In this document: positions 46,228 to 56,940 of the stretch, in pieces
Numbering within the stretch: position 1 is the first letter of the stretch
How the letters are laid out: every line of letters starts with the position of its first letter
Translations under genes and position numbers: made by a program
The notes under the pieces: model-generated
What the model saw: only the letters and a program-made list of their open reading frames with translations
What the model was told of the DNA's origin: nothing
The model's database searches: none
Origin: an uncultured Dictyoglomota bacterium
GTDB lineage: Bacteria; Dictyoglomota; Dictyoglomia; Dictyoglomales; Dictyoglomaceae
Length of the DNA: 64,000 nt
Direction of reading: 5' to 3'
Assembly (NCBI GenBank): GCA_964654465.1
Contig: CAZZIO010000065.1
Span: forward strand, 1 to 64,000

Positions 46228-46956
46228 TTAAACATCTATCAATTCATATTTGCCCCAAACTCCTAAATGCTCTCCTATAATAATTATTACTTGATGAACT
46301 TCTGGAAATTTTTTAGCAAATTCTAATCCTATATTTATATCTTCAGGCTTTTGAATAAGATTTCCCACTGCTGTAGCCATAGCATCTGCAAAAATAACAG
46401 AATGTGATATTATAACAACAGCATCAGCTTTGCCAAAACTAAGAGAAGGTCCCACTGTTCCAGAAGATGTACAAATACCCAATACCGAATTTTTAGGAAT
46501 AAGTATCCCTATTTTATTACTCCAGGGAGATTCTCCTGCAAAGATTAACACTTTTCTTTCTTTTTTTGTAGAAATGAAAATATCTCCACCATTTTCAATG
46601 ATTATTTGAGAAGAATAATTTAAAAGATCTTTTCCAACAAACTCGGATATAGCTCCTGCTACAGAAGCCATTGGCCCAACTCCTGCCTTTCCTGTCCAGT
46701 ATGACATCTGTTTAACTATTAAAGGTGCATCCTCTTCCACAGTGTAAGGAGTTAAGGATACCCTAAATAAAGGATCTCTTGATATATAATCTTCTAATTG
46801 TTGTCTATAGAAAGATAAAATTTTTAATGTTTCTTCTTCAAGGTTTTTCTCAGCTAAAACAAATAGGTCACTTTCCCGAATTTTTACAGGAAAACCAACA
46901 AGATCCTCTGTTTTCACTAACCTTCTATATTTTCTTTCTATATATTCTTTTGTCAT
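46228..46956 (-). CDS. UPF0280 (ApbE-like, MA1715-type) protein
   Basis: GVGPMASVAGA, ENGGDI, ICTSSGTVGPSLSFGKADA. Confidence 0.92.
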   Translation of the reverse strand: MTKEYIERKYRRLVKTEDLVGFPVKIRESDLFVLAEKNLEEETLKILSFYRQQLEDYISRDPLFRVSLTPYTVEEDAPLIVKQMSYWTGKAGVGPMASVAGAISEFVGKDLLNYSSQIIIENGGDIFISTKKERKVLIFAGESPWSNKIGILIPKNSVLGICTSSGTVGPSLSFGKADAVVIISHSVIFADAMATAVGNLIQKPEDINIGLEFAKKFPEVHQVIIIIGEHLGVWGKYELIDV

Positions 46957-46971
46957 AAAAATCCATAAAAT

Positions 46972-47000
46972 ATGGGGAGAGAAATATATCCTCTCCCCAT
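46972..47000 (-). terminator. Hairpin between NIL-ferredoxin and UPF0280 genes
   Basis: ATGGGGAGAG/CTCTCCCCAT 10-bp stem, ATTTTAT tail on the minus strand. Confidence 0.6.
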
Positions 47001-47010
47001 TTAAATATAT

Positions 47011-47418
47011 CTAAACAAAGAGTTTCATCTCCATAGCATTATATGGACATAGTTCTACACAAATTCCACAAGCTGTACATTTTTGAGAATCAAACTTGAC
47101 AAAATAACCTTCTCTATAAAGAGCTTTTGTTGGACAATAACTTACACAATATCCACAATGTACACATTTATCCTCTAACCATACTACATCTTGAGAAAGA
47201 GGCTGAATCTCAACACCTAAATCTTTCAAATATTCAATTCCTTTTATAAAATTATCATCTTCTCCCGAAAGCTCTAAAACCATTAATCCCTCTTCGTCTG
47301 GAGTGATCGTAGCCTTAAGTATATTAAAATCCAAATTAAATTTTTTCACCAAATTTACCACTACAGGCTTATCAGCAAGTTCCTTTGGAAAATGTAATAC
47401 TATCCTCTCTGTTCTCAC
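47011..47418 (-). CDS. NIL domain + 2x[4Fe-4S] ferredoxin (MA1822/MJ0099-like)
   Basis: FNILKA; CVHCGYCVSYCP and CTACGICVELCP. Confidence 0.92.
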   Translation of the reverse strand: MRTERIVLHFPKELADKPVVVNLVKKFNLDFNILKATITPDEEGLMVLELSGEDDNFIKGIEYLKDLGVEIQPLSQDVVWLEDKCVHCGYCVSYCPTKALYREGYFVKFDSQKCTACGICVELCPYNAMEMKLFV

Positions 47419-48635
47419 TTCTGCTCCACCTCCCCTAAAATCTCTTTTCCACTAAATTGTTTAAATTTTATACCTGACTCTACTCCAGGAAGTGGGGCAG
47501 AAGGAGAAGTTAAAAAGAATTTTCCTTCTTTTATCCATGATTTAAGTATTTCAGCTATCTCTTTAGCTTTAGGATAACTTGATAACGGGCTTGTAGGTAT
47601 CTTCTTTCCAAAAAGCTCTATATAACCACTTTTAAGTTCCTTATAACTTACATAAGTGATAACATCAGATTCTCTATTAGGATAAGCTGTAGCATAATCT
47701 ACTACTGGCGCCAGTATATCCTCATCACTAACAGAGGTATAAAAAGCCATCTCTTCATCTAAAATAGGAATTGGTACACCTATGCCTACTGCCAGTGAGA
47801 CCCCATATCCTTTCATGCTTACCCCACGAAGCCATTTTGCGTTCATCTGTTTAAGATCACCAATAACTGCTAATGTACCTGCTCCACCTTTTGGTATACC
47901 CCTTTCTGTCCTCTCTACAGAAGGATTATGTTGAGTTCCATGCCAAATCACATATCCTATACCACCACCCAAAAATATACGAGTTCCGATTCCTATAGTC
48001 TTATAATAAGGATCATTTAAAAGAGGTGATAATTGCCCTGCACTGGAATAATTTGCATTACCAAACTTAGGTTTTAACATACCTAAGTATGTATACAACA
48101 CTCTGTTTGAAGAGTTTACAGCCACATTATAATTTTGATACGCATTTCTTATATTAAAAAGTACAGCTTCATTAAGGTCATTTATTGTAATATAAGCATC
48201 CAAAAATCTTCTTGGGTAACAATCTGTACCATATGCTTGAGCAGTTATTCTAATTTCTTTACCTGAAACTAAATCCTCTATTACGTGTCCTCCACCATAT
48301 GGGAAATCTCCGGGATAATACTTATTTCTTGGATCATCATCAGGCAAGGCATTTGCACCTAAGAATAAGTCTACTGCTGCGTAAGCAGCATAAGCAGGAA
48401 CACCGTTAAGATATACTTTTCCTCCCCCGAGCTTAATTCTTGGTTTTGTATGGCCAATGTTAAAATATATACCAGAAGAACACATAATTCCAAAAGTCCC
48501 AGTTGTTACAACATCTACTTCTTTAGCTGCTCTCTCTACACCCTTTTCTTTCACGATACCAATCATTTCCTCAGCAGTAACAACCACTGCCTTACCCTGG
48601 CGGATCTTCTCATTAATTTCTTCAATTGTCTTCAT
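47415..48635 (-). CDS. DUF39 homocysteine biosynthesis protein (aspartate-semialdehyde sulfurtransferase, MA1821/MJ0100-like) without CBS domains
   Basis: DVVTTGTFGIMCSSG, YGGGHVIEDL, GTDCYPR, RNAYQNY, LSPLLNDP, GTQHNP. Confidence 0.92.
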   Translation of the reverse strand: MKTIEEINEKIRQGKAVVVTAEEMIGIVKEKGVERAAKEVDVVTTGTFGIMCSSGIYFNIGHTKPRIKLGGGKVYLNGVPAYAAYAAVDLFLGANALPDDDPRNKYYPGDFPYGGGHVIEDLVSGKEIRITAQAYGTDCYPRRFLDAYITINDLNEAVLFNIRNAYQNYNVAVNSSNRVLYTYLGMLKPKFGNANYSSAGQLSPLLNDPYYKTIGIGTRIFLGGGIGYVIWHGTQHNPSVERTERGIPKGGAGTLAVIGDLKQMNAKWLRGVSMKGYGVSLAVGIGVPIPILDEEMAFYTSVSDEDILAPVVDYATAYPNRESDVITYVSYKELKSGYIELFGKKIPTSPLSSYPKAKEIAEILKSWIKEGKFFLTSPSAPLPGVESGIKFKQFSGKEILGEVEQK

Positions 48636-48718
48636 CCTTTTACCTCCTTTTTCTCAATATCTATTATAACTTCTCCTATATTAACCGCCCTTTTCGGGCA
48701 AGGCATGATCCATAACAA
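48632..48718 (-). CDS. Putative 28-aa leader peptide (MLWIMPCPKRAVNIGEVIIDIEKKEVKG)
   Basis: AAGGAGGT RBS 7 nt before TTG; TGA overlaps DUF39 ATG (ATGA). Confidence 0.45.
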   Translation of the reverse strand: MLWIMPCPKRAVNIGEVIIDIEKKEVKG

Positions 48719-48758
48719 TTTCACCACCTCCTTAAATAAGGGGTAAAATTTTCCATAT

Positions 48759-48787
48759 ATAATACCAAAAACGTCGGAGTTTTGCAA
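48759..48787 (-). promoter_or_regulatory. sigma70-type promoter for the DUF39 operon
   Basis: TTGCAA, 17 bp, TGnTATTAT on the minus strand. Confidence 0.65.
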
Positions 48788-48802
48788 GATTATAAATTGA
48801 TT

Positions 48803-49765
48803 TTATCTATATTTCTTAGCAGTCTCCATAAAAACCTTTATATTTTCCAAAGGTGTACCTACAGGTATATCACAACCAGAACTTAAAATAAAATTTTTAA
48901 CATCTCTCATTTTATTTAGAAGCTCAATAGTCTTCTTCTCTATATCTTCTTTTTTCCCTTGTAAAAAAACTTTGACAGGATCCAGATTACCTATAATATA
49001 CATATGAGATGGGATTTTTTCAGCAACCCATTTTAAATCTACCAAACTATCAAGACTTAACCCATAAGCATCGCTTTTCCCCATATCTTCTATAAGATGA
49101 GATGTATTACCACAAATATGATATATGAGAGGTCTTTTAAGTTCAGATACAAGATACTTGAAATAGGGTAAAGAAAATTCCCTAAAATAAGCTGGAGAAA
49201 GTATAACTGCAGTTGGTTCCAATACCGCTACCACATCAACTCCTGCATCGAAAAAAGCTTTTGCATACTCTTTGATAACATTCACAGAAAACTCTAGCAA
49301 TTCCTTTACAAAATCAGGATCATCTATTACATTAATACCTAAATCATTTACACCCATAAGTTCACCTGTTAAAGTAAAAGGACCTATAACATAACCTCCT
49401 TTTATTACCTTGAAATTCTGAGCCATTTTTTCAGCCACTCTAATAAATGTTATCATACGTCCAGAAATACCCTTCCATCTTCTTTTTATATCTTGAAGAA
49501 CTTCTCTATCCTTAACCGGATGATCTAAAACAGAAGGATTTTCATTCTCAGGGAAATTAATCTTTAGACCTAAAGCTTCTACTTCTACAGTCAAATCCAT
49601 AAAAGTAAATATACCATCAGGTTGAAACTCTGAAAGAATCATATCCAAAGTTTTAAACTGTATTTCTGGATTTATTAAATTTTCTTTTAAAGTAGTATTA
49701 GTCAATTTTATTCCTGGAGCACCAAGTAAAGGAATTATTAGTCTTTCTCCTCTCTTATCAAGCAT
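48803..49765 (-). CDS. Uroporphyrinogen-decarboxylase-fold methyltransferase (MtaA/MtbA/CmuA-like)
   Basis: DLTVEVEALG, GPFTL, Zn-type motif YHICG...SSGCD, GNLDP. Confidence 0.85.
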   Translation of the reverse strand: MLDKRGERLIIPLLGAPGIKLTNTTLKENLINPEIQFKTLDMILSEFQPDGIFTFMDLTVEVEALGLKINFPENENPSVLDHPVKDREVLQDIKRRWKGISGRMITFIRVAEKMAQNFKVIKGGYVIGPFTLTGELMGVNDLGINVIDDPDFVKELLEFSVNVIKEYAKAFFDAGVDVVAVLEPTAVILSPAYFREFSLPYFKYLVSELKRPLIYHICGNTSHLIEDMGKSDAYGLSLDSLVDLKWVAEKIPSHMYIIGNLDPVKVFLQGKKEDIEKKTIELLNKMRDVKNFILSSGCDIPVGTPLENIKVFMETAKKYR

Positions 49766-51444
49766 TGATCTTCCTCCTCAAAATACATAAACTTTATAAA
49801 ATACTCTTGAAATTTTTTATCAGAAGAAAGCTCTACATAATTGACTTTTTCTTTTATCTTTTCTACATCTTCCATAAGAAATCTATTTAGAAGTACAATC
49901 TTAGCTCCTCCAATAGCCGAATTCCCAACCAATATAATTTTTTCCAAAGGTATATGAGGTAAAAGTCCTGTTTTAATAGCATTTTTTCTATTCAAATAAC
50001 TACCAAAAGAACCAGCAATATAAATTTTATCTATTTCTTTATAGATTATACCTGCTTTATTAAGTAAAACCTCTATACCAGCTCTTAAGGCAGATTTTAC
50101 CAGTTGAAACTCCCTAACATCTTTCTGAGTTATCTTAACTTTACCTATATAAAATTCCCCGCCCTTCATAAATTTCCCAGTATGATCTATTATCTTTAGA
50201 TCCAACATTACTGATATAGCATCTAAAAGGCCAGAACCACATATTCCTTTCTCTTCCATATCTCCAATAACCTCAAACTTAACTGTTTCTTCTAACCATA
50301 CATGAGAAATAGCACCTTTCTTTGCAATCATGCCATGTGAAATATTACTTCCTTCAAAGGCAGGTCCTGCAGCCGTAGCACACGCAAAAAGAGTATCCTC
50401 TGACTTTAACACTATCTCACCATTGGTTCCTATATCAATAAGCATAACATTTCCTTTTTCATTCAATAAATTAGTAGCTATAATTCCTGCTACTACATCT
50501 CCCCCCACATAACCTGAGATTAAAGGAAAGACATAAAGTTTTGCATTAAATATATTTCCAAAAATATCTTTTGAATTAAAAATCATTCCATTTCTAAAAG
50601 CAGGAACAAAAGGAGAAAAAGCTATATTTTCCGGAGTTACACCAAGAAAAATGTGAGTCATAACGGAATTACCAGCTATGGAGATAGCATAAATATCATT
50701 TAAACTTATATTATTCTTTATACACAAATCTTGAATTATCTCTGTAATAGCTTTTATTAACTTATCTCTTAGAATCTGCAAACCCTCAGGATTATGAATA
50801 ATAAAATTAATTCTTGAAATTATATCAGCCCCATAAGTTAACTGAGGATTTTCAGTAGAATAGCTATCTATATCGCTTCCATTTGTAAGATCCAATATAT
50901 GTCCTACTAAAGTTGTTGTCCCTATATCCAAAGCAATACCATATACACTTTTTAGTTCTTCTTCCCTTATATCAATTATTTCTTCCTTAAAAAGTACAAG
51001 ATTCCCTTTATAATTATTTCTTCTTAAAAAAGTTGGTAATCTTCTTAAAACAGAAATATCTTGTAAATATATATTTTCTTTTACAGATAAAATTCTTTCT
51101 AAATCGGATCTCAAATCGCTAAGAGAAGGAATTTGCAGAGAAAAAGCTTGTAATGTAATGACGGGAGAAAGGATAAAATTGTTATCTTCTAAAAATTCCT
51201 TTTGTATGTTTATGTCAGTACTTTCTTCTTTTAACAATTCAACCGTTAAATCCTCTTCCGCATATGTCTGACAAGCAAGGCTTATACCCTTATCTAATAT
51301 TTTTACCTTACACTTTTTACACCATCCAGCCCCACCACAATAAGAAGGAATTTTTATATTATTTTCTATCAATATATCTAATAATCTATCCCCTTGAGTT
51401 ACCTTAATTATTTTGTTTTCAGGTAAAACTCTTATATATGGCAT
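49738..51444 (-). CDS. ASKHA (DUF4445) ATP-dependent corrinoid reductive activator, RACo-like, with N-terminal 2Fe-2S domain
   Basis: CGGAGWCKKC...LACQ, DIGTT, YVGGD, DIGTNGE, AAGPAFEG, GICGSG, AGSFG. Confidence 0.92.
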   Translation of the reverse strand: MPYIRVLPENKIIKVTQGDRLLDILIENNIKIPSYCGGAGWCKKCKVKILDKGISLACQTYAEEDLTVELLKEESTDINIQKEFLEDNNFILSPVITLQAFSLQIPSLSDLRSDLERILSVKENIYLQDISVLRRLPTFLRRNNYKGNLVLFKEEIIDIREEELKSVYGIALDIGTTTLVGHILDLTNGSDIDSYSTENPQLTYGADIISRINFIIHNPEGLQILRDKLIKAITEIIQDLCIKNNISLNDIYAISIAGNSVMTHIFLGVTPENIAFSPFVPAFRNGMIFNSKDIFGNIFNAKLYVFPLISGYVGGDVVAGIIATNLLNEKGNVMLIDIGTNGEIVLKSEDTLFACATAAGPAFEGSNISHGMIAKKGAISHVWLEETVKFEVIGDMEEKGICGSGLLDAISVMLDLKIIDHTGKFMKGGEFYIGKVKITQKDVREFQLVKSALRAGIEVLLNKAGIIYKEIDKIYIAGSFGSYLNRKNAIKTGLLPHIPLEKIILVGNSAIGGAKIVLLNRFLMEDVEKIKEKVNYVELSSDKKFQEYFIKFMYFEEEDQCLIREEKD

Positions 51445-52083
51445 TTATGATACTTTGAGTAATCTATTGACCAACTCCACAGAGGAATAAGCATCCTCTG
51501 CATAACCATCTGCGCCAATCTCCTTCGCAAATTCTTCTGTAACAGGAGCACCTCCAACAATAATCTTAACCTTATCTCTTAATCCTTCCTTTTCAATAAC
51601 ATCTATAGTAACCTTCATTTGAGACATTGTAGTGGTAAGAAGAGCTGACATCCCCACCACATCAGGTTTATTTTCTTTTATTGCTTGCACAAACTTCTCA
51701 GGTGGCACATCTATACCAAGATCAATTATTTGATAACCAGCTCCCTCTAACATCATAGCGACTAAATTTTTCCCAATATCATGCAAATCTCCCTTAACAG
51801 TACCTATTACAATCTTTCCTTTAATAACATTTGAGGATTTTGCAATAAGAGGTTTTAAAATTTCCATACCTTTTTGCATTGCTCTTGCAGAAACAAGAAC
51901 CTCGGGAACAAAGATTTCATTTTTCTTAAATCTTTCTCCTATAACACTCATACCTGAAAGAAGTCCTTTGTCTATTATATCTTCTGGGGTAATCCCTTCT
52001 TTTAATGCCTTCTCCACTAATTCTTGAACCTTTTTTCTATCACCTGAAATTACAGCATTTGCAATTTCTTTTAATATTTCCAT
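51445..52083 (-). CDS. Corrinoid (B12-binding) protein
   Basis: Cap domain FVPEVL; GDLHDIGKN (DxHxxG), SALLTTT, VGGAP. Confidence 0.95.
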   Translation of the reverse strand: MEILKEIANAVISGDRKKVQELVEKALKEGITPEDIIDKGLLSGMSVIGERFKKNEIFVPEVLVSARAMQKGMEILKPLIAKSSNVIKGKIVIGTVKGDLHDIGKNLVAMMLEGAGYQIIDLGIDVPPEKFVQAIKENKPDVVGMSALLTTTMSQMKVTIDVIEKEGLRDKVKIIVGGAPVTEEFAKEIGADGYAEDAYSSVELVNRLLKVS

Positions 52084-52097
52084 ATTATAAACCTCCC

Positions 52098-52124
52098 GAA
52101 AACGTTTTTCTTTTATGAATTATA
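52098..52124 (-). promoter_or_regulatory. Extended -10 promoter and LacI-type operator upstream of the corrinoid gene
   Basis: TGnTATAAT (52119-52124, minus) followed by palindrome AAAACGTTTT (52099-52108) just before the RBS. Confidence 0.65.
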
Positions 52125-52155
52125 TCATATTTACCTCAATTTTTACCCAAATTTT

Positions 52156-53169
52156 CTATTTTCTTGGAGCAGTACTCTCCCTTATCACCAACTTTGTAGG
52201 AAGTTTAATATGTTGAATAGGAAGATCTGGATTTTTTAATCTTTCTATTAAAACTTCCGCTGCTTTAACTCCCATCTCATAGAATGGCTGAGAAACAGTG
52301 GTTAGTTCGGGTATAGTAAGATTGGCAAGAGTGTCATCAAACCCCACTATAGACATATCCTGAGGTATACGAATTCCTCTTTTGACAAGTATCTTCATAA
52401 TCTGAATAGCCATAAAATCACTAAAAGCAAAAACGGCAGTAGGCGGAATAGGAAGAGAAAGTAACTCATTAATTGCTATTTCTTCATTAACCTGATCATA
52501 AAATATCTTCAGGAGATTTTCATCAAAAGGAATTTTAGCATCCTCCAACGCTTTTTTATAACCTTCAATTCTTTCCCTTACAATAATACTTTCTGGATTT
52601 ATAGTAATATGAGCTATTCTTGTATGACCTAACTCAATTAAATACTTAACTGCCTCATAACTTCCCTGAATATTATCAGCATATACCACATCATGTTCGG
52701 AAAATCTTGGATGCTCCAATATAACCAAAGGCATATTTTTCTTACGAGCAAGCCTACTTACTTCTTCATTTGACAGTGCTCCAACGATCACACCATCAAC
52801 CCTTCTTTCCAACATAAGATTCATATATCTTAGTTCTCTCAATGATTTTCCATCTGTATTACAAAGAAGAACGGTATATCCATTATGTCTTGCCACATCC
52901 TCTATTCCCCTTGCCATATTAGGAAAGACAGGATTAGCTATATCTAATACAAAAAATGCAATAGCTTCAGTTTTTTGCTTTGCTAAACTTCTTGCAATTG
53001 CATTTGGTTTATAATCCAGTATTTTCACAGCCTCAAGTACTCTTCTTCTAGTTTCTTCACTTATTTTTATTCCAGGAGTATTATTAAGAACAAAAGAAAC
53101 AGTTGAACGAGAAACTCCAGCAAGTCTTGCTACATCCCAACTCGTAGGCGCTTTCTTTTTCTTTGTCAT
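52156..53169 (-). CDS. LacI family transcriptional regulator
   Basis: DVARLAGVSRSTVS HTH, YKPNAIARSL hinge, SIVGFDD, LTTV, IRES. Confidence 0.95.
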   Translation of the reverse strand: MTKKKKAPTSWDVARLAGVSRSTVSFVLNNTPGIKISEETRRRVLEAVKILDYKPNAIARSLAKQKTEAIAFFVLDIANPVFPNMARGIEDVARHNGYTVLLCNTDGKSLRELRYMNLMLERRVDGVIVGALSNEEVSRLARKKNMPLVILEHPRFSEHDVVYADNIQGSYEAVKYLIELGHTRIAHITINPESIIVRERIEGYKKALEDAKIPFDENLLKIFYDQVNEEIAINELLSLPIPPTAVFAFSDFMAIQIMKILVKRGIRIPQDMSIVGFDDTLANLTIPELTTVSQPFYEMGVKAAEVLIERLKNPDLPIQHIKLPTKLVIRESTAPRK

Positions 53170-53253: not shown

Positions 53254-56200
53254 ATGAAAAGAAAAAATATATTTCTTTTATTTCTCCTTATTATACTTAT
53301 ATTTCAAGTCTCTGCTCAACAAAAAGCAGATCCTAAAATATTATGGAGCGCCATCTTAGATGAAAATTTTAACTATGTAAAAAACTTAGAGACTGATGAT
53401 TTTAATACAAACATAGCAAAAGCTTTAATTTTTTTATTAGAAGATAACTTTACAGAATCCTGGAATTACTGGAAAAAAGCACTTCAAATAAATTCTTCCT
53501 CTTATTGGCATGACATCATAGGACTTCTTGGAGAAGGTGCTTGGGAGAATTTAGGGATATTTAAAGAAATTCCCATTATCTTAAAAGATAAAAAAAACCT
53601 TTCTCCTTTCATGGAAAATTTATATTGGAAATCTTTGCTTTCTCAACAAAAGATAAAAGAAATCTATAATTATGCAAGAAGTAAAGGCTTTATTACTGAT
53701 TTTCTTTTCATCGGCCCTTTTGAAAATGTAGGAAATTCTGGATTATATAAAGAATTTCCACCTGAAAAAGAGATTTTGCTAAATCAAAAGTATAAAGGAA
53801 AAAATGGCATAGAAATTAATTGGTTTAAGCCTATGGAAAAAAGTATAAATGGTTATATCAACCTTTATAATTTGTTCTATCCTAATAAATGGAGTACTGC
53901 TTATGCTCTTTGTTATATTTTTATGCCCAAAAGCCAAGAAGTATTAATTAAAATAGGTTCGCCAAATTCCTATAAATTATTTATAGATGACTCTTTTATC
54001 TATAGCATAGAAACAGAAAGACGAAACTTGTTTGACCAAGAGATTATAAAAATTTACTTACCTTTAGGTTGGCATAAATTATTAATTAAAATTTCTAATA
54101 CTATGGGTCCTTTTGGATTTTATTTAGGGATCACCAATGAAAAGAATGAACCTATATCTGGAATAAAGATATCTGAGAATATTCAGAATTATATAAAAAG
54201 GAATTTGTCCTGGGTAAAAATAATCCCACAAAAAGACTTTATCAGAGAATCATCATTATCTGAGATATTTTATTCTTTTTACGGATTTCTTTTAGGTACC
54301 TATTATGGATATAGTGATGCTGGAGAAGAATTTTTAGAAAGAGCAGAAAAAATAAAACCTAAATCCTCATTAATAAAGTTTTTAAAAGGCAAGCTTGAAT
54401 ATGAACTTGGAAACTTAGAAACTGCTAAAAAATATATGGACATTGCCTATAAGGGTAACAGAGACATAAAACTCTCTGCATATTACTTATCTCTCTACAA
54501 CTTAAATTATGGAAGATATGAGGATGCCATAAAGATAATTAAAGAAAATATACACGATAATTCATTCCTTTTAAGATCTCTACTCTCAAGAATCTTCATA
54601 TCACTATCGTGGGAAAAAGAAGTAAATTCAAACGTTAATACATTATCATCTAAATATCCAAACTCTATAGAAACATTATTTTTAATTGGAAAATATTATG
54701 AGATAAAGGAAATTAAAGATAAGGCTATAGATTATTATCAAAAAGCATTATCTATAGACACTGAAAATTGGGAGATGTTTTTAACATTATATAACTTAGC
54801 CGATGAACTAAATCGAATTGATATCTTAGAAAATTTATTAGATATAGCCTTAGAAAAAGATCCAACAAGCACTTGGGCGTACTTAGAAAAGATAAGATTA
54901 TACATGATTAGGGGAGACAAAGAGAAAGCATTTTCCATATTAGAAAGAGTTGAAAAAATCTCCTATCAATATCCTGAAACCTATCTATACAAAGGAAAAC
55001 TTTATTTAGAAGATAATGACGAAAAAGCCATAGAACTTTTCGAAAGAACCCTTCAATTAAATCCATATTTTACAAATTTAAGAATCTATATAAACCATCT
55101 GAAAAGAGAAGAATATAATCTCCCTGATGTTTCTTCTTATTTAGAATCAAAAATTCCAGAAGAATATTTAGAATATCCAGCTGTAATCTTATTAGATCAA
55201 AAAGAAAGAACTTTTTTTAATGATGGAACTTCAAGGATGATTTATCATAAATTAATTAAAATTCTTAAAAACTCAGCAAAAGACAAATATGGCGAAATTC
55301 AAATAGACTACGATTCAAGCTTTGAGAGAGTAAGAATATTAAGGGCAAGAACAATAAAACCAAACGGTGATGAAATTGAAGTCTCAACAATACAGGATTT
55401 TCCAATACTTAGTGATTACCCTCTTTATACTGATGAAAGAAAAATTGTTCTCTCATATCCAGGAATTGAAAAAGGAGCTATCTTAGAGTGTCTATACATG
55501 GTAGAAGAATACACTGGTGGGATATATGGTAAAAACTTTCAAGATATCTTTTTCTTTCAAAACGAGATACCTTCATTATACAGTAGATTCATATTAAAGA
55601 TTCCAAAGGATTTAGAGATAAAATATACCTTTTATAATGGTAACAAAGAACCTAACATAGAAGAAGATAAGAAATGGAAAACATACAAATGGGAAATGGA
55701 AAAACTTCCTGCTATAATAGAAGAACCACTTATGCCTAAAGTAATAGATCTAATACCTCAAGTATGGATAACCACATTCAAAGATTGGGAACAATTAGCA
55801 GATCTTTATTATTCCTTAGCTTACCCTCAAATTAGAGCTGATAAGGCAATTAAAGAAAAGGTTAAAGAATTAATATTAGGTTTGAAAAAAGAAGAAGACA
55901 AAATAAAAGCTATATACTATTATGTAACGTCAGAAATAAGATATGTTGGATTAGAATTTGGTATTGGAGGAATTATGCCTCATAGTGCTCCCAGCATATT
56001 TAGAGAAAAATATGGTGATTGTAAAGATAAGGCAATACTGCTCATTACTATGCTTCAAGAAGCAGGAATAGAAGCGTATTATACTCTCGTAAACACCAGA
56101 TATTCCATATCTTTTAAGAAAGAAATACCTGCTTTTCAGTTTGATCATGCTATAGTAGCTGTACCTCTAAATAATAATTTTATTTTCCTTGATGGAACAG

Positions 56201-56940
56201 CTGAAAATACACCTTTTGGAGAAGTACCATACATGGATCAAGGAGCAGATGTTATGATTATAAAAGACGAAAAACCAGTATTTACAAAAATTCCCATGAG
56301 CAAACCTGAAGAAAACGCAAAAGATTTTAAGACAGAAATTATTTTTGAAAATGGCAAGGCTTTAATGAAAACTACATTATCTTTTAAAGGCTATTTTGCA
56401 ACTTATTTTCGTTGGTTATTAGATAGTCTATCTTATGAGGAAAAGGAAAATCTTATATCCTACTTAATAAACAATACTTATCCCGGCTCTTATCTTACTT
56501 CTTGGAATATTGAAAATCTATATAATTTAGAAGCCCCTCTAAGGATAAATGTCCAATATTATAATAGCCAGCTTCTAAAAAATAATAAATATACATATAT
56601 ATATTCCCCATTCATTACAAAAATAGAGAAGGCTGAAGAAATATTTAAAGAAGAAAGAATATACCCCATCCAATACTACCTTCCATACGAGGAAAAAGAA
56701 TTAATAACCATTAATTTGTCCTCTATTAATAAAATCCCTGAAAATATATTGGAAAATGTAAATATAGAGAATCCTTGGATAACCTACACGAGAAAATGTT
56801 ACTGGGAAGGAAAGAATATTCTAATTGAAAGAAACTTCAAACTAAAAGAGATATTTATCCCCACTGAGAATTATAAAGAATACAAGAAAACAATCGAGGA
56901 AATTATAGACAGAGATAACGAAATACTAATATTAAGATAA
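53254..56940 (+). CDS. Large exported TPR + DUF3857 + transglutaminase-like protein
   Basis: Signal peptide, IGPF domain, TPRs, YGDCKDKA...FDHAI...LDGT triad. Confidence 0.85.
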   Translation: MKRKNIFLLFLLIILIFQVSAQQKADPKILWSAILDENFNYVKNLETDDFNTNIAKALIFLLEDNFTESWNYWKKALQINSSSYWHDIIGLLGEGAWENLGIFKEIPIILKDKKNLSPFMENLYWKSLLSQQKIKEIYNYARSKGFITDFLFIGPFENVGNSGLYKEFPPEKEILLNQKYKGKNGIEINWFKPMEKSINGYINLYNLFYPNKWSTAYALCYIFMPKSQEVLIKIGSPNSYKLFIDDSFIYSIETERRNLFDQEIIKIYLPLGWHKLLIKISNTMGPFGFYLGITNEKNEPISGIKISENIQNYIKRNLSWVKIIPQKDFIRESSLSEIFYSFYGFLLGTYYGYSDAGEEFLERAEKIKPKSSLIKFLKGKLEYELGNLETAKKYMDIAYKGNRDIKLSAYYLSLYNLNYGRYEDAIKIIKENIHDNSFLLRSLLSRIFISLSWEKEVNSNVNTLSSKYPNSIETLFLIGKYYEIKEIKDKAIDYYQKALSIDTENWEMFLTLYNLADELNRIDILENLLDIALEKDPTSTWAYLEKIRLYMIRGDKEKAFSILERVEKISYQYPETYLYKGKLYLEDNDEKAIELFERTLQLNPYFTNLRIYINHLKREEYNLPDVSSYLESKIPEEYLEYPAVILLDQKERTFFNDGTSRMIYHKLIKILKNSAKDKYGEIQIDYDSSFERVRILRARTIKPNGDEIEVSTIQDFPILSDYPLYTDERKIVLSYPGIEKGAILECLYMVEEYTGGIYGKNFQDIFFFQNEIPSLYSRFILKIPKDLEIKYTFYNGNKEPNIEEDKKWKTYKWEMEKLPAIIEEPLMPKVIDLIPQVWITTFKDWEQLADLYYSLAYPQIRADKAIKEKVKELILGLKKEEDKIKAIYYYVTSEIRYVGLEFGIGGIMPHSAPSIFREKYGDCKDKAILLITMLQEAGIEAYYTLVNTRYSISFKKEIPAFQFDHAIVAVPLNNNFIFLDGTAENTPFGEVPYMDQGADVMIIKDEKPVFTKIPMSKPEENAKDFKTEIIFENGKALMKTTLSFKGYFATYFRWLLDSLSYEEKENLISYLINNTYPGSYLTSWNIENLYNLEAPLRINVQYYNSQLLKNNKYTYIYSPFITKIEKAEEIFKEERIYPIQYYLPYEEKELITINLSSINKIPENILENVNIENPWITYTRKCYWEGKNILIERNFKLKEIFIPTENYKEYKKTIEEIIDRDNEILILR

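Follow-up and report, generated by a model that had tools for sequence, protein, structure and literature searches.

A seven-gene locus at positions 46,228–53,169 of a 64,000-nucleotide stretch of DNA from an uncultured Dictyoglomaceae bacterium, a sugar fermenter of hot springs (the whole stretch is hereafter called the window), joins a corrinoid methyl-transfer module, including an MtaA-like enzyme of the URO-D family here named UROD1, to genes for homocysteine synthesis. Several described systems share components with it. The methanogen methylcobamide:coenzyme M methyltransferases MtaA, MtbA and MtsA are like UROD1 in fold family, His-Cys-Cys site, partner corrinoid protein and ATP-dependent activase. 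The three-component O-demethylases of acetogens, Desulfitobacterium and Methermicoccus combine a URO-D donor enzyme without Cys ligands (methyltransferase I, MT I), a small corrinoid protein and a 2Fe-2S RACo activase, and cleave methyl ethers via Co(I); a second, pterin-binding or MtrH-like enzyme (MT II) methylates tetrahydrofolate (THF). The enzymes reported to methylate THF or tetrahydromethanopterin in this way are MtvA, the ~30-kDa MtaA of acetogens and the MtrH-like MtoA (PMC13391211, PMC8630106), and in the available text of this literature we found no folate methylase of the URO-D family named.

Methionine synthesis with a separate corrinoid carrier is also documented. The split MetH of Phaeobacter consists of three genes with a RamA-like activase (Price 2018, PMC5764234), and MtgC and MtgD of Ruegeria are common to betaine demethylation and methionine synthesis (Mausz 2025, PMC12478193); in both systems the PF02574 methylase and the B12 carrier are separate proteins, a RamA-like activase is present, and the carrier serves catabolic demethylation as well as methionine synthesis. 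Type 1 mlp clusters, which encode Mlp2 and Mlp3, likewise combine MtaA-like proteins of the His-Cys-Cys type with a corrinoid protein and a RACE activase and have no folate methylase, and a link to methyl-sulfur or methionine metabolism has been proposed for them (Kountz & Balskus 2023, PMC10418091). The same authors place the URO-D family and MetE in one UroD superfamily, and describe URO-D S-methyltransferases as carrying a His-Cys-Cys zinc triad, of which one or both Cys residues are replaced in O-methyltransferases. Homocysteine itself is made from aspartate semialdehyde and sulfide in Desulfovibrio and methanogens by proteins of the DUF39, NIL-ferredoxin and COG2122 families (MA1821, MA1822 and MA1715; DvMF_1464, DvMF_0262 and DvMF_0044) (PMC5764234).

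Comparison of the locus with these systems leads us to favour, with modest confidence, a dispersed corrinoid system in which the methyl group of 4-O-methyl-glucuronate would be moved by a second URO-D enzyme (UROD2), encoded on another contig of the genome, onto the window's carrier and from there to thiols. A first-pass annotation, made from the letters of the DNA alone, had proposed that UROD1 methylates homocysteine in a split methionine synthase fed by a methylated compound, such as an O-methyl sugar, sensed by LacI. It is plausible that LacI controls a corrinoid module supplied by an O-methyl sugar, given a LacI-type palindrome kept in three of three genomes and an O-type URO-D gene directly following a glycoside hydrolase family 67 (GH67) gene. 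Homocysteine as the thiol acceptor gains from the His-Cys-Cys site of UROD1 and from operons of three other genomes in which the same homocysteine genes precede MetH, and loses from the presence of another enzyme, a stand-alone homocysteine S-methyltransferase (HcyMT), that is at least as good a candidate.

The window is one contig (C65) of a 1.91-Mb genome (G000) that is 99.97% complete; C22, C64, C67, C18 and C40 denote its other contigs. Pfam and NCBIfam profile searches of the window proteins bore out the description of seven co-oriented genes, with all seven open reading frames (ORFs) on the minus strand and concordant domain assignments. The LacI-family repressor (52156–53169, minus strand, 337 aa) has LacI and Peripla_BP domains, its best NCBIfam matches being RbsR-type and all below cut-off. 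It is followed by the corrinoid (B12) methyl-carrier protein (51445–52083, minus strand, 212 aa), which carries B12-binding_2 and B12-binding domains, scores 221 bits against TIGR02370, above the cut-off, and is the sole methyltransferase-type corrinoid protein of the genome. The RACo/RamA-type ATP-dependent reductive activase (49738–51444, minus strand), with an N-terminal 2Fe-2S domain (Fer2) and RACo_linker, Raco_middle and RACo_C_ter domains, is also present in a single copy in the genome, and its stop overlaps the start of UROD1 (48803–49765, minus strand; URO-D domain, 211 bits) by 28 nt. Downstream lie the DUF39/HcyBio homocysteine biosynthesis enzyme (47415–48635, minus strand, 406 aa; HcyBio, 515.6 bits), a protein with a NIL domain and a 2x[4Fe-4S] ferredoxin (47011–47418, minus strand, 135 aa; NIL and two Fer4 domains), and an ApbE-like UPF0280 protein (46228–46956, minus strand; NF003323, 271.8 bits against a cut-off of 271), which we take to be COG2122/MA1715. 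The same trio, in identical order, precedes MetH (1220–1227 aa) in operons of three unrelated hosts, one Bacteroidota and two spirochaetes (L285:281-6398, L286:1779-7817 and L287:1956-7981), in agreement with this last assignment. The stretch comprises two adjoining transcription units, unit A (lacI with the corrinoid protein, RACo and UROD1 genes) and unit B (DUF39, NIL-ferredoxin and COG2122), and the two probably cooperate. All three families of the published homocysteine pathway are encoded in unit B, which fits that pathway as the first-pass annotation had described it (Price 2018, PMC5764234). The proteins of unit B are ordinary; what is unusual relative to the described pathway is the conserved corrinoid-module neighbour in place of MetH, together with a conserved leader that belongs to no classified family.

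The zinc site distinguishes UROD1 from the second URO-D enzyme of the genome. The best curated family for UROD1 is TIGR01463 (mtaA_cmuA; 180.8 bits, under the cut-off of 235.4), and its closest relative in the PDB is the thiol methylase MtaA (4AY7, E 2.6e-24). The His-X-Cys...Cys zinc motif recognized at first pass was confirmed as an S-type triad, H216, C218 and C298 being invariant in 15 of 15 aligned homologues from several phyla, among which family members are 54–61% identical; the closest public loci belong to Dictyoglomaceae metagenome-assembled genomes (MAGs), with UROD1 identities of 89%, 76% and 70%. Below the family cut-off, and in a LacI-regulated operon beside homocysteine genes, UROD1 differs from the coenzyme M methylases, and coenzyme M is an unlikely acceptor in a fermentative bacterium. 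A single methyltransferase had been noted at this locus, which holds for the window and fails for the genome, where UROD2 is encoded at C22:73744-74793. UROD2 is 25% identical to UROD1 and has lost both Cys ligands, the H-I-C and S-G-C-D motifs of UROD1 being replaced by H-N-D and G-G-G. Among 201 URO-D domains placed in a tree, drawn from all loci fetched, the UROD1 clade carries His-Cys-Cys in 74 of 75 members, with one not scored, and the 67 ORFs of the UROD2-type clade carry His-Asp-Gly. Under the zinc-triad rule, we interpret these motifs as marking UROD2 for methyl ethers (O-methyl substrates) and UROD1 for thiols or thioethers.

Methyl-glucuronoxylan is among the most abundant plant polymers, and our literature searches found no description of an oxygen-independent enzyme that demethylates 4-O-methyl-glucuronic acid or any other methylated sugar. 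UROD2, which matches the O-demethylase MT I in being a URO-D enzyme without Cys zinc ligands, starts 13 bp 3' of the GH67 alpha-glucuronidase gene, outside the window. In Dictyoglomus turgidum the GH67 enzyme is active on xylan oligosaccharides, and this organism is reported to make no tetrapyrroles (PMC5167688), from which it follows that the URO-D genes serve no haem pathway and that corrinoid must be imported. A relative's locus (L188:320-11041) physically joins the window's type of carrier and activase to the glucuronidase unit, with a single cluster encoding an ATP-binding cassette transporter, a corrinoid protein, RACo, MtaB, GH67 and UROD2 (corrinoid protein 75%, GH67 70% and UROD2 77% identical to those of this genome). 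Its MtaB (PF12176, 565 bits), which might either charge the carrier with methyl from methanol or discharge it as methanol, holds the place that UROD1 has in the window, and no UROD1-type match was obtained in that genome.

Other xylan-related loci bring UROD2 relatives together with the same partners. A Calditrichaceae locus (L166) encodes a GH115 alpha-glucuronidase, GH43, a corrinoid protein, HcyMT, a UROD2-like protein and a major facilitator superfamily transporter, and an Ignavibacteria xylan locus (L091) encodes GH43, a fucosidase, a corrinoid protein, HcyMT, a MetH-activation-like protein, a UROD2-like protein, an esterase, a carbohydrate esterase family 4 protein, a UROD1-like protein and GH10. 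Among 80 loci of UROD2 relatives, most of them from Planctomycetota at ~40% identity, GH67 was found near the URO-D gene in three (adjacent in L188 and L197, ~3 kb away in the Oscillospiraceae locus L208), a cluster identified from its scanned representative as glucuronate isomerase (UxaC) in four, and clusters of TRAP transporter components in four to six.

The neighbourhoods of UROD1 were surveyed in the same manner, with UROD1-clade ORFs called in 75 of 80 loci and neighbours counted within 5 kb. Corrinoid proteins were encoded at 25 of the 75 loci, RACo at 10, LacI at seven and HcyMT at two. DUF39 also occurred at two, both from Dictyoglomaceae, a third Dictyoglomaceae locus being cut off. 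A second URO-D ORF lay beside UROD1 at 17 loci, and among the 18 partner URO-D ORFs 13 lack the full His-Cys-Cys triad, three have it and two were not scored. Such a distribution is expected where donor enzymes vary and the enzyme that unloads the carrier is conserved, and UROD1 may therefore have the unloading role. One locus (L035) has MttB, a corrinoid protein and UROD1 together, and other neighbours are often sugar genes (2-keto-3-deoxygluconate kinase and aldolase, GalT and GalK, FGGY kinases, GH2, GH4 and AraC). Galactose-1-phosphate uridylyltransferase and galactokinase genes lie just 5' of UROD1 in three Thermotogota loci (L043, assigned by Pfam, and L049 and L053, where ORFs of the same clusters occur).

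A different pairing was observed around MtaB in non-methanogen MAGs that also have UROD1. Among eight regions fetched (L277–L284), five encode MtaB followed by a fusion protein of 574–584 aa that combines an MtaA-like His-Cys-Cys URO-D domain with a corrinoid domain (e.g. L278:7901-11043); in L278, DUF39 and NIL-ferredoxin genes lie ~5 kb from this pair.

Searches for metH, metE and further methyltransferase partners, which the first-pass annotation had called for, located UROD2 and HcyMT, both off the window contig, together with a split MetE and MetF, MetV, FolD and Fhs. HcyMT (C64:37810-38754, 245 bits) is a stand-alone, MetH-type PF02574 protein in which the Cys motifs NCG and GGCCG are present. 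Of 80 loci of its relatives, 65 yielded ORF calls, which divide into stand-alone forms under 400 aa (41) and longer MetH or fusion forms (24). Within 5 kb of the 41 stand-alone genes we found a URO-D gene in 25 cases, a corrinoid protein gene in 22 and both in 20; none of the 24 longer forms has a nearby URO-D gene. The recurrent cluster of HcyMT, corrinoid protein and URO-D enzyme is, judging by its gene content, a putative split methionine synthase in which the URO-D enzyme replaces the folate domain of MetH, and no published description of such an enzyme was found. Because its relatives cluster with corrinoid and URO-D genes in 20 of 41 loci, HcyMT has a claim to the homocysteine step no weaker than that of the protein at 48803–49765. 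Each of the three genomes reached only through GH67-UROD2 (G041, G047 and G048) has a stand-alone HcyMT of 310–323 aa; five further genomes checked for HcyMT were excluded from this count, having been chosen through HcyMT or UROD1.

Fifteen URO-D ORFs of the tree have Phe-Cys-Cys at the triad positions (L029:10981-12600; also, for example, L115, L117, L128, L130, L141, L144, L148, L149 and L152), 13 of them 539–545 aa and two 450–453 aa long. Corrinoid protein and HcyMT genes both lie within 4 kb in 11 of the 15, and one of the two does in the rest. Of the two members scanned with Pfam, that of L029 has a C-terminal thioredoxin-like domain and that of L152 has none; the family is uncharacterised.

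The remaining one-carbon enzymes of the genome delimit the acceptors available to the carrier. Two adjacent ORFs, each of at most 400 aa, encode a split MetE as defined by Price (2021): a Meth_synt_1-like protein of 325 aa (C67:5424-6401) and a Meth_synt_2 catalytic protein of 342 aa (C67:6398-7426, 275.9 bits), overlapping by 4 nt (L007). The same arrangement is found in another Dictyoglomaceae genome (G001). Split MetE proteins are described mainly from archaea and predicted to be folate-dependent (Price 2021, PMC7857596). An acetogen-style cluster of Fhs, FolD, MetV (DUF5981) and MetF (C40:249370-252942; L106) is present in this fermentative non-acetogen and could supply methyl-THF to the split MetE or oxidise methyl groups. 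The sole Pterin_bind gene of the genome is FolP, located between HPPK and FolE2/PTPS genes, and no MtrH and no MtaB were found in the genome, so that neither a pterin-binding nor an MtrH-like MT II of the O-demethylase kind is encoded. With no known folate-methylating corrinoid enzyme in the genome, UROD1, UROD2 and HcyMT are left as candidates to charge and discharge the carrier.

From the genes present, their motifs, the conservation of operator and promoter and the co-localisation counts, all of them observed, a model can be assembled in which every substrate and the direction of each transfer are our inference. GH67 would free 4-O-methyl-glucuronate from xylan oligosaccharides, and UROD2, a more likely substrate demethylase than UROD1, would move the ether methyl onto the Co(I) of the corrinoid protein, with RACo regenerating Co(I) after accidental oxidation. 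HcyMT would unload CH3-Co(III) onto homocysteine to give methionine, the homocysteine being made by unit B from aspartate semialdehyde and sulfide. HcyMT is the better-supported route to methionine and UROD1 a second thiol-type enzyme, which might, tentatively, unload onto sulfide or another small thiol; homocysteine would be a somewhat less probable acceptor for it, and the reverse role of a methyl-thioether donor enzyme an unlikely one. The locus hints at an undescribed methionine route without proving it.

The proposed system and the three-component O-demethylases would both cleave a methyl ether via Co(I), and differ in that the substrate here is predicted to be an aliphatic sugar methyl ether rather than an aryl ether, in that UROD1 and HcyMT take the place of the pterin-binding or MtrH-like MT II, and in the dispersal of the genes over three contigs. 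As in the split MetH and MtgBCD systems, one carrier is proposed to serve catabolic demethylation and methionine synthesis. A PF02574 subunit (on C64, unlinked to the window), a B12 protein with cap and binding domains and a RamA-like activase are all encoded; the PF00809 methyl-THF-binding subunit is lacking, FolP being the only Pterin_bind protein, and URO-D enzymes replace it. The host is moreover a strict anaerobe, and HcyMT is not encoded with the carrier. Type 1 mlp clusters contain Mlp2 and Mlp3, whereas here one Mlp is present in the cluster, the second URO-D enzyme is O-type and encoded on another contig, and the context is one of sugar genes rather than selenium or MarHDK genes.

If correct, the model would close a gap in anaerobic sugar O-demethylation by a corrinoid-mediated transfer of methyl from a sugar ether to a thiol, and in many anaerobic phyla it would connect the degradation of hemicellulose with the metabolism of methionine or methyl-sulfur compounds. 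Should UROD1 methylate homocysteine, methionine would be formed from a xylan-derived methyl group and DUF39-derived homocysteine, with the carrier loaded by the GH67-linked UROD2, and UROD1 would represent a third enzyme lineage for homocysteine methylation beside MetH and MetE/Mes. The window contributes, first, a thiol-type URO-D enzyme that accompanies variable URO-D genes across phyla as their conserved partner and, second, the strict placement of this enzyme beside homocysteine genes in two Dictyoglomota genera, so far the best genomic hint at homocysteine as a possible acceptor. The cultured Dictyoglomus thermophilum and D. turgidum carry the same genes, which makes the question directly testable.

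A number of observations weigh against this model. GH67 was found near UROD2 relatives in only three of the 80 loci and GH115 in none, and their commonest neighbour family, a GFO/IDH/MocA oxidoreductase by its scanned representative (24 of 80 loci), is not xylan-specific, so that many members of the UROD2 clade may act on other sugars. A genome scan gave no clear copy of the LacI operator 5' of GH67-UROD2. The genome's own HcyMT adjoins plsY-like and hypA genes and no corrinoid gene, its role being drawn only from other phyla, and the split MetE and MetF already provide a conventional methionine route. By our estimate, one methyl group per uronate far exceeds the demand for methionine, and homocysteine therefore cannot be the sole sink. 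The MtaB that occupies the place of UROD1 in L188 fits a donor or an unloading role alike and does not settle the direction. Corrinoid must be imported, and no B12 riboswitch was found in the genome. Finally, all five genomes of one Dictyoglomota genus (g3) have DUF39 and no UROD1 ortholog, one of them having a 36% identical paralogue on another contig.

The first alternative is that of the first-pass annotation in full, with UROD1 as an MtaA-type methylcorrinoid:homocysteine methyltransferase that forms, with the corrinoid protein, RACo and a donor enzyme, a folate-independent split methionine synthase coupled to the DUF39 operon; we regard it as doubtful. Its thiol-type triad, its closest solved relative and the grouping of URO-D enzymes with MetE in one superfamily agree with such a role. 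The co-localisation of the two blocks was examined in 11 species genomes of Dictyoglomota, six of which, from genera g1 and g2, have a UROD1 ortholog (at least 70% identity). UROD1 adjoins DUF39 in all six, with readable gaps of 161–195 bp, and no terminator-like site was found between UROD1 and the DUF39 promoter. These genomes are kin, so the six cases count as one or two events, and linkage held within this group only: outside Dictyoglomaceae, none of 72 UROD1 loci has DUF39 within 5 kb. The DUF39-trio–MetH operons indicate that homocysteine genes tend to sit beside methionine synthase, that is, in the position UROD1 occupies here, which keeps the original idea alive.

Among 40 genomes with UROD1, PF02574 is present in 33, MetE in four and DUF39 in 14, so that homocysteine methylation by UROD1 would be redundant in most; in L029, L091 and L185 a PF02574 protein is encoded in the same cluster as UROD1. 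Seven of the 40 have neither PF02574 nor MetE (PF01717), namely six Thermotogota MAGs (G004, G006, G012, G028, G034 and G037, behind L018, L020, L026, L043, L049 and L053) and one small Clostridiales MAG. This phylogenetic profile at first seemed to support a hidden methionine synthase and was set aside, since DUF39 and HTS also gave no match in all seven; absences from MAGs are weak evidence, and MetX was not searched for. Methionine auxotrophy is the simpler reading of these genomes, and the six Thermotogota, which also lack MetH, resemble auxotrophs. Control of the operon by a sugar-type LacI repressor rather than by methionine, and the presence of split MetE and MetF, argue further against a methionine synthase. 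Of the findings that the first-pass annotation had named as refuting it, two were thus made in part: a MetE, of the split type, is encoded, and the two blocks are unlinked outside Dictyoglomota.

Just as doubtful, in our assessment, is a role of UROD1 as an overflow valve, moving the methyl of CH3-Co(III) to sulfide or a small thiol (yielding, for example, methanethiol) and so disposing of methyl groups where no acetogenic pathway operates, with the homocysteine genes as incidental neighbours. The estimated stoichiometric need for a methyl sink, the S-type triad, and the status of UROD1 as the conserved partner of variable URO-D genes all accord with it. UROD1 also occurs in Thermotogota genomes without HcyMT, MetH or MetE, and its 54–61% identity across phyla fits a small, universal substrate. 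A type 1 Mlp is reported to have weak methylcobalamin:sulfide activity and a stronger activity with selenide (PMC10418091). One UROD1 locus (L033) belongs to a Parasporobacterium MAG. Methanethiol formation from methoxylated aromatics plus sulfide is known from anaerobes such as Holophaga and Parasporobacterium. The overflow role leaves the strict DUF39 adjacency in two genera unexplained, and the accessible literature contained no report of methanethiol production by Dictyoglomus.

We consider it rather unlikely that UROD1 acts on the donor side, loading the corrinoid protein from a methyl-thioether or methyl-selenide and passing the methyl on to HcyMT for methionine salvage; candidate donors are methanethiol, dimethyl sulfide and a methylthio-sugar arising from the use of S-adenosylmethionine (SAM). 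The same logic has been proposed for the His-Cys-Cys Mlps of type 1 mlp clusters (PMC10418091), MtsA is an S-type URO-D enzyme for which methyl sulfides are already known as substrates (PMC8630106), and in L188 it is the methanol donor enzyme MtaB that takes the position of UROD1. The LacI repressor is most like ribose-type repressors, and a near-identical operator core precedes an operon of an FGGY kinase and SAM synthetase. On the other side, the cluster has one Mlp instead of the Mlp2 and Mlp3 pair, the Thermotogota genomes with UROD1 lack HcyMT as a receiver of the methyl group, and the operator core is common in the genome.

Least probable is that the adjacency is meaningless, unit A being a sugar demethylase module that passes methyl groups to THF through an unrecognised enzyme for oxidation by MetFV, FolD and Fhs and unit B an unrelated housekeeping operon: the separate promoters, the complete MetV-MetF-FolD-Fhs cluster and the lack of linkage in all other phyla would suit it, but a 99.97% complete genome with no pterin-binding protein besides FolP and no methyltransferase of MtrH type, the lack of a named URO-D folate methylase in the literature available to us, and the frequent HcyMT–corrinoid–URO-D clusters, which point to thiol acceptors, make it very unlikely.

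The regulatory sequences of unit A are conserved. A 10-bp palindrome, AAAACGTTTT (52099–52108), lies between the extended -10 box TGATATAAT of the corrinoid gene (52127–52119, minus strand), which is upstream of it, and the ribosome-binding site of that gene. Both elements are invariant in three of three aligned upstream regions of related genomes, and the palindrome, having the shape and position of a LacI operator, is a candidate for that function. Scanning the genome returned 10 sites for the operator 12-mer with at most one mismatch and 17 intergenic sites for the 10-bp core, often ahead of other sugar transporters and LacI paralogues. An attempt to define a LacI regulon through the operator was abandoned, as a core this frequent cannot delimit one. 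One operator-like site, sharing the AAAACGTTTTTCTTTT string with the corrinoid operon, lies 31 bp 5' of an FGGY sugar kinase gene (C18:38286-41282; L100) that is followed by genes for an archaeal-type SAM synthetase (PF01941) and a class I lysyl-tRNA synthetase. A link through the kinase was rejected, this enzyme being only 32–33% identical to the FGGY kinases beside UROD1 in L016 and L021.

Unit B has its own promoter, as the first-pass annotation had pointed out, of the form TTGCAA-17-TATTAT with a TG before the second hexamer (48759–48787, minus strand), and it is kept in three of three related genomes. Since no terminator-like site precedes it, read-through from UROD1 into DUF39 is possible. 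The transcribed leader of the DUF39 operon (48636–48752, minus strand; 5' end at ~48752 estimated from the -10 box) has a core of ~60 nt that is nearly identical in three Dictyoglomaceae genomes and includes a GCCC-GAAAA-GGGC hairpin, and it could be a regulatory RNA particular to this lineage, acting in sulfur or methionine control. Its fold is unremarkable (z = -2.15), Rfam gave only chance-level matches in 48600–48830, and no second copy was found in the genome. Riboswitch control of the DUF39 operon was discounted, no Rfam family reaching its gathering score anywhere in the window and no SAM-I or cobalamin riboswitch being found in the genome. A small ORF in the leader was likewise rejected: both inter-genome differences in the conserved part would alter an amino acid, and the absence of silent changes gives no sign of coding.

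Contigs of a ~90–93% identical relative in a metatranscriptome (X1) cover 46228–47940, 48010–48724 and 50847–53148; none of them bridges the UROD1–DUF39 junction, and such contigs cannot give transcript ends or levels. Within what otherwise resembles a single operon, a hairpin with a 12-bp stem (46972–47000, minus strand), terminator- or attenuator-like, falls between the NIL-ferredoxin and UPF0280 genes. On the other side of the locus, divergent from the LacI gene, an ORF at 53254–56940 (plus strand) encodes a 1228-aa protein with TPR repeats, DUF3857 and a transglutaminase-like core.

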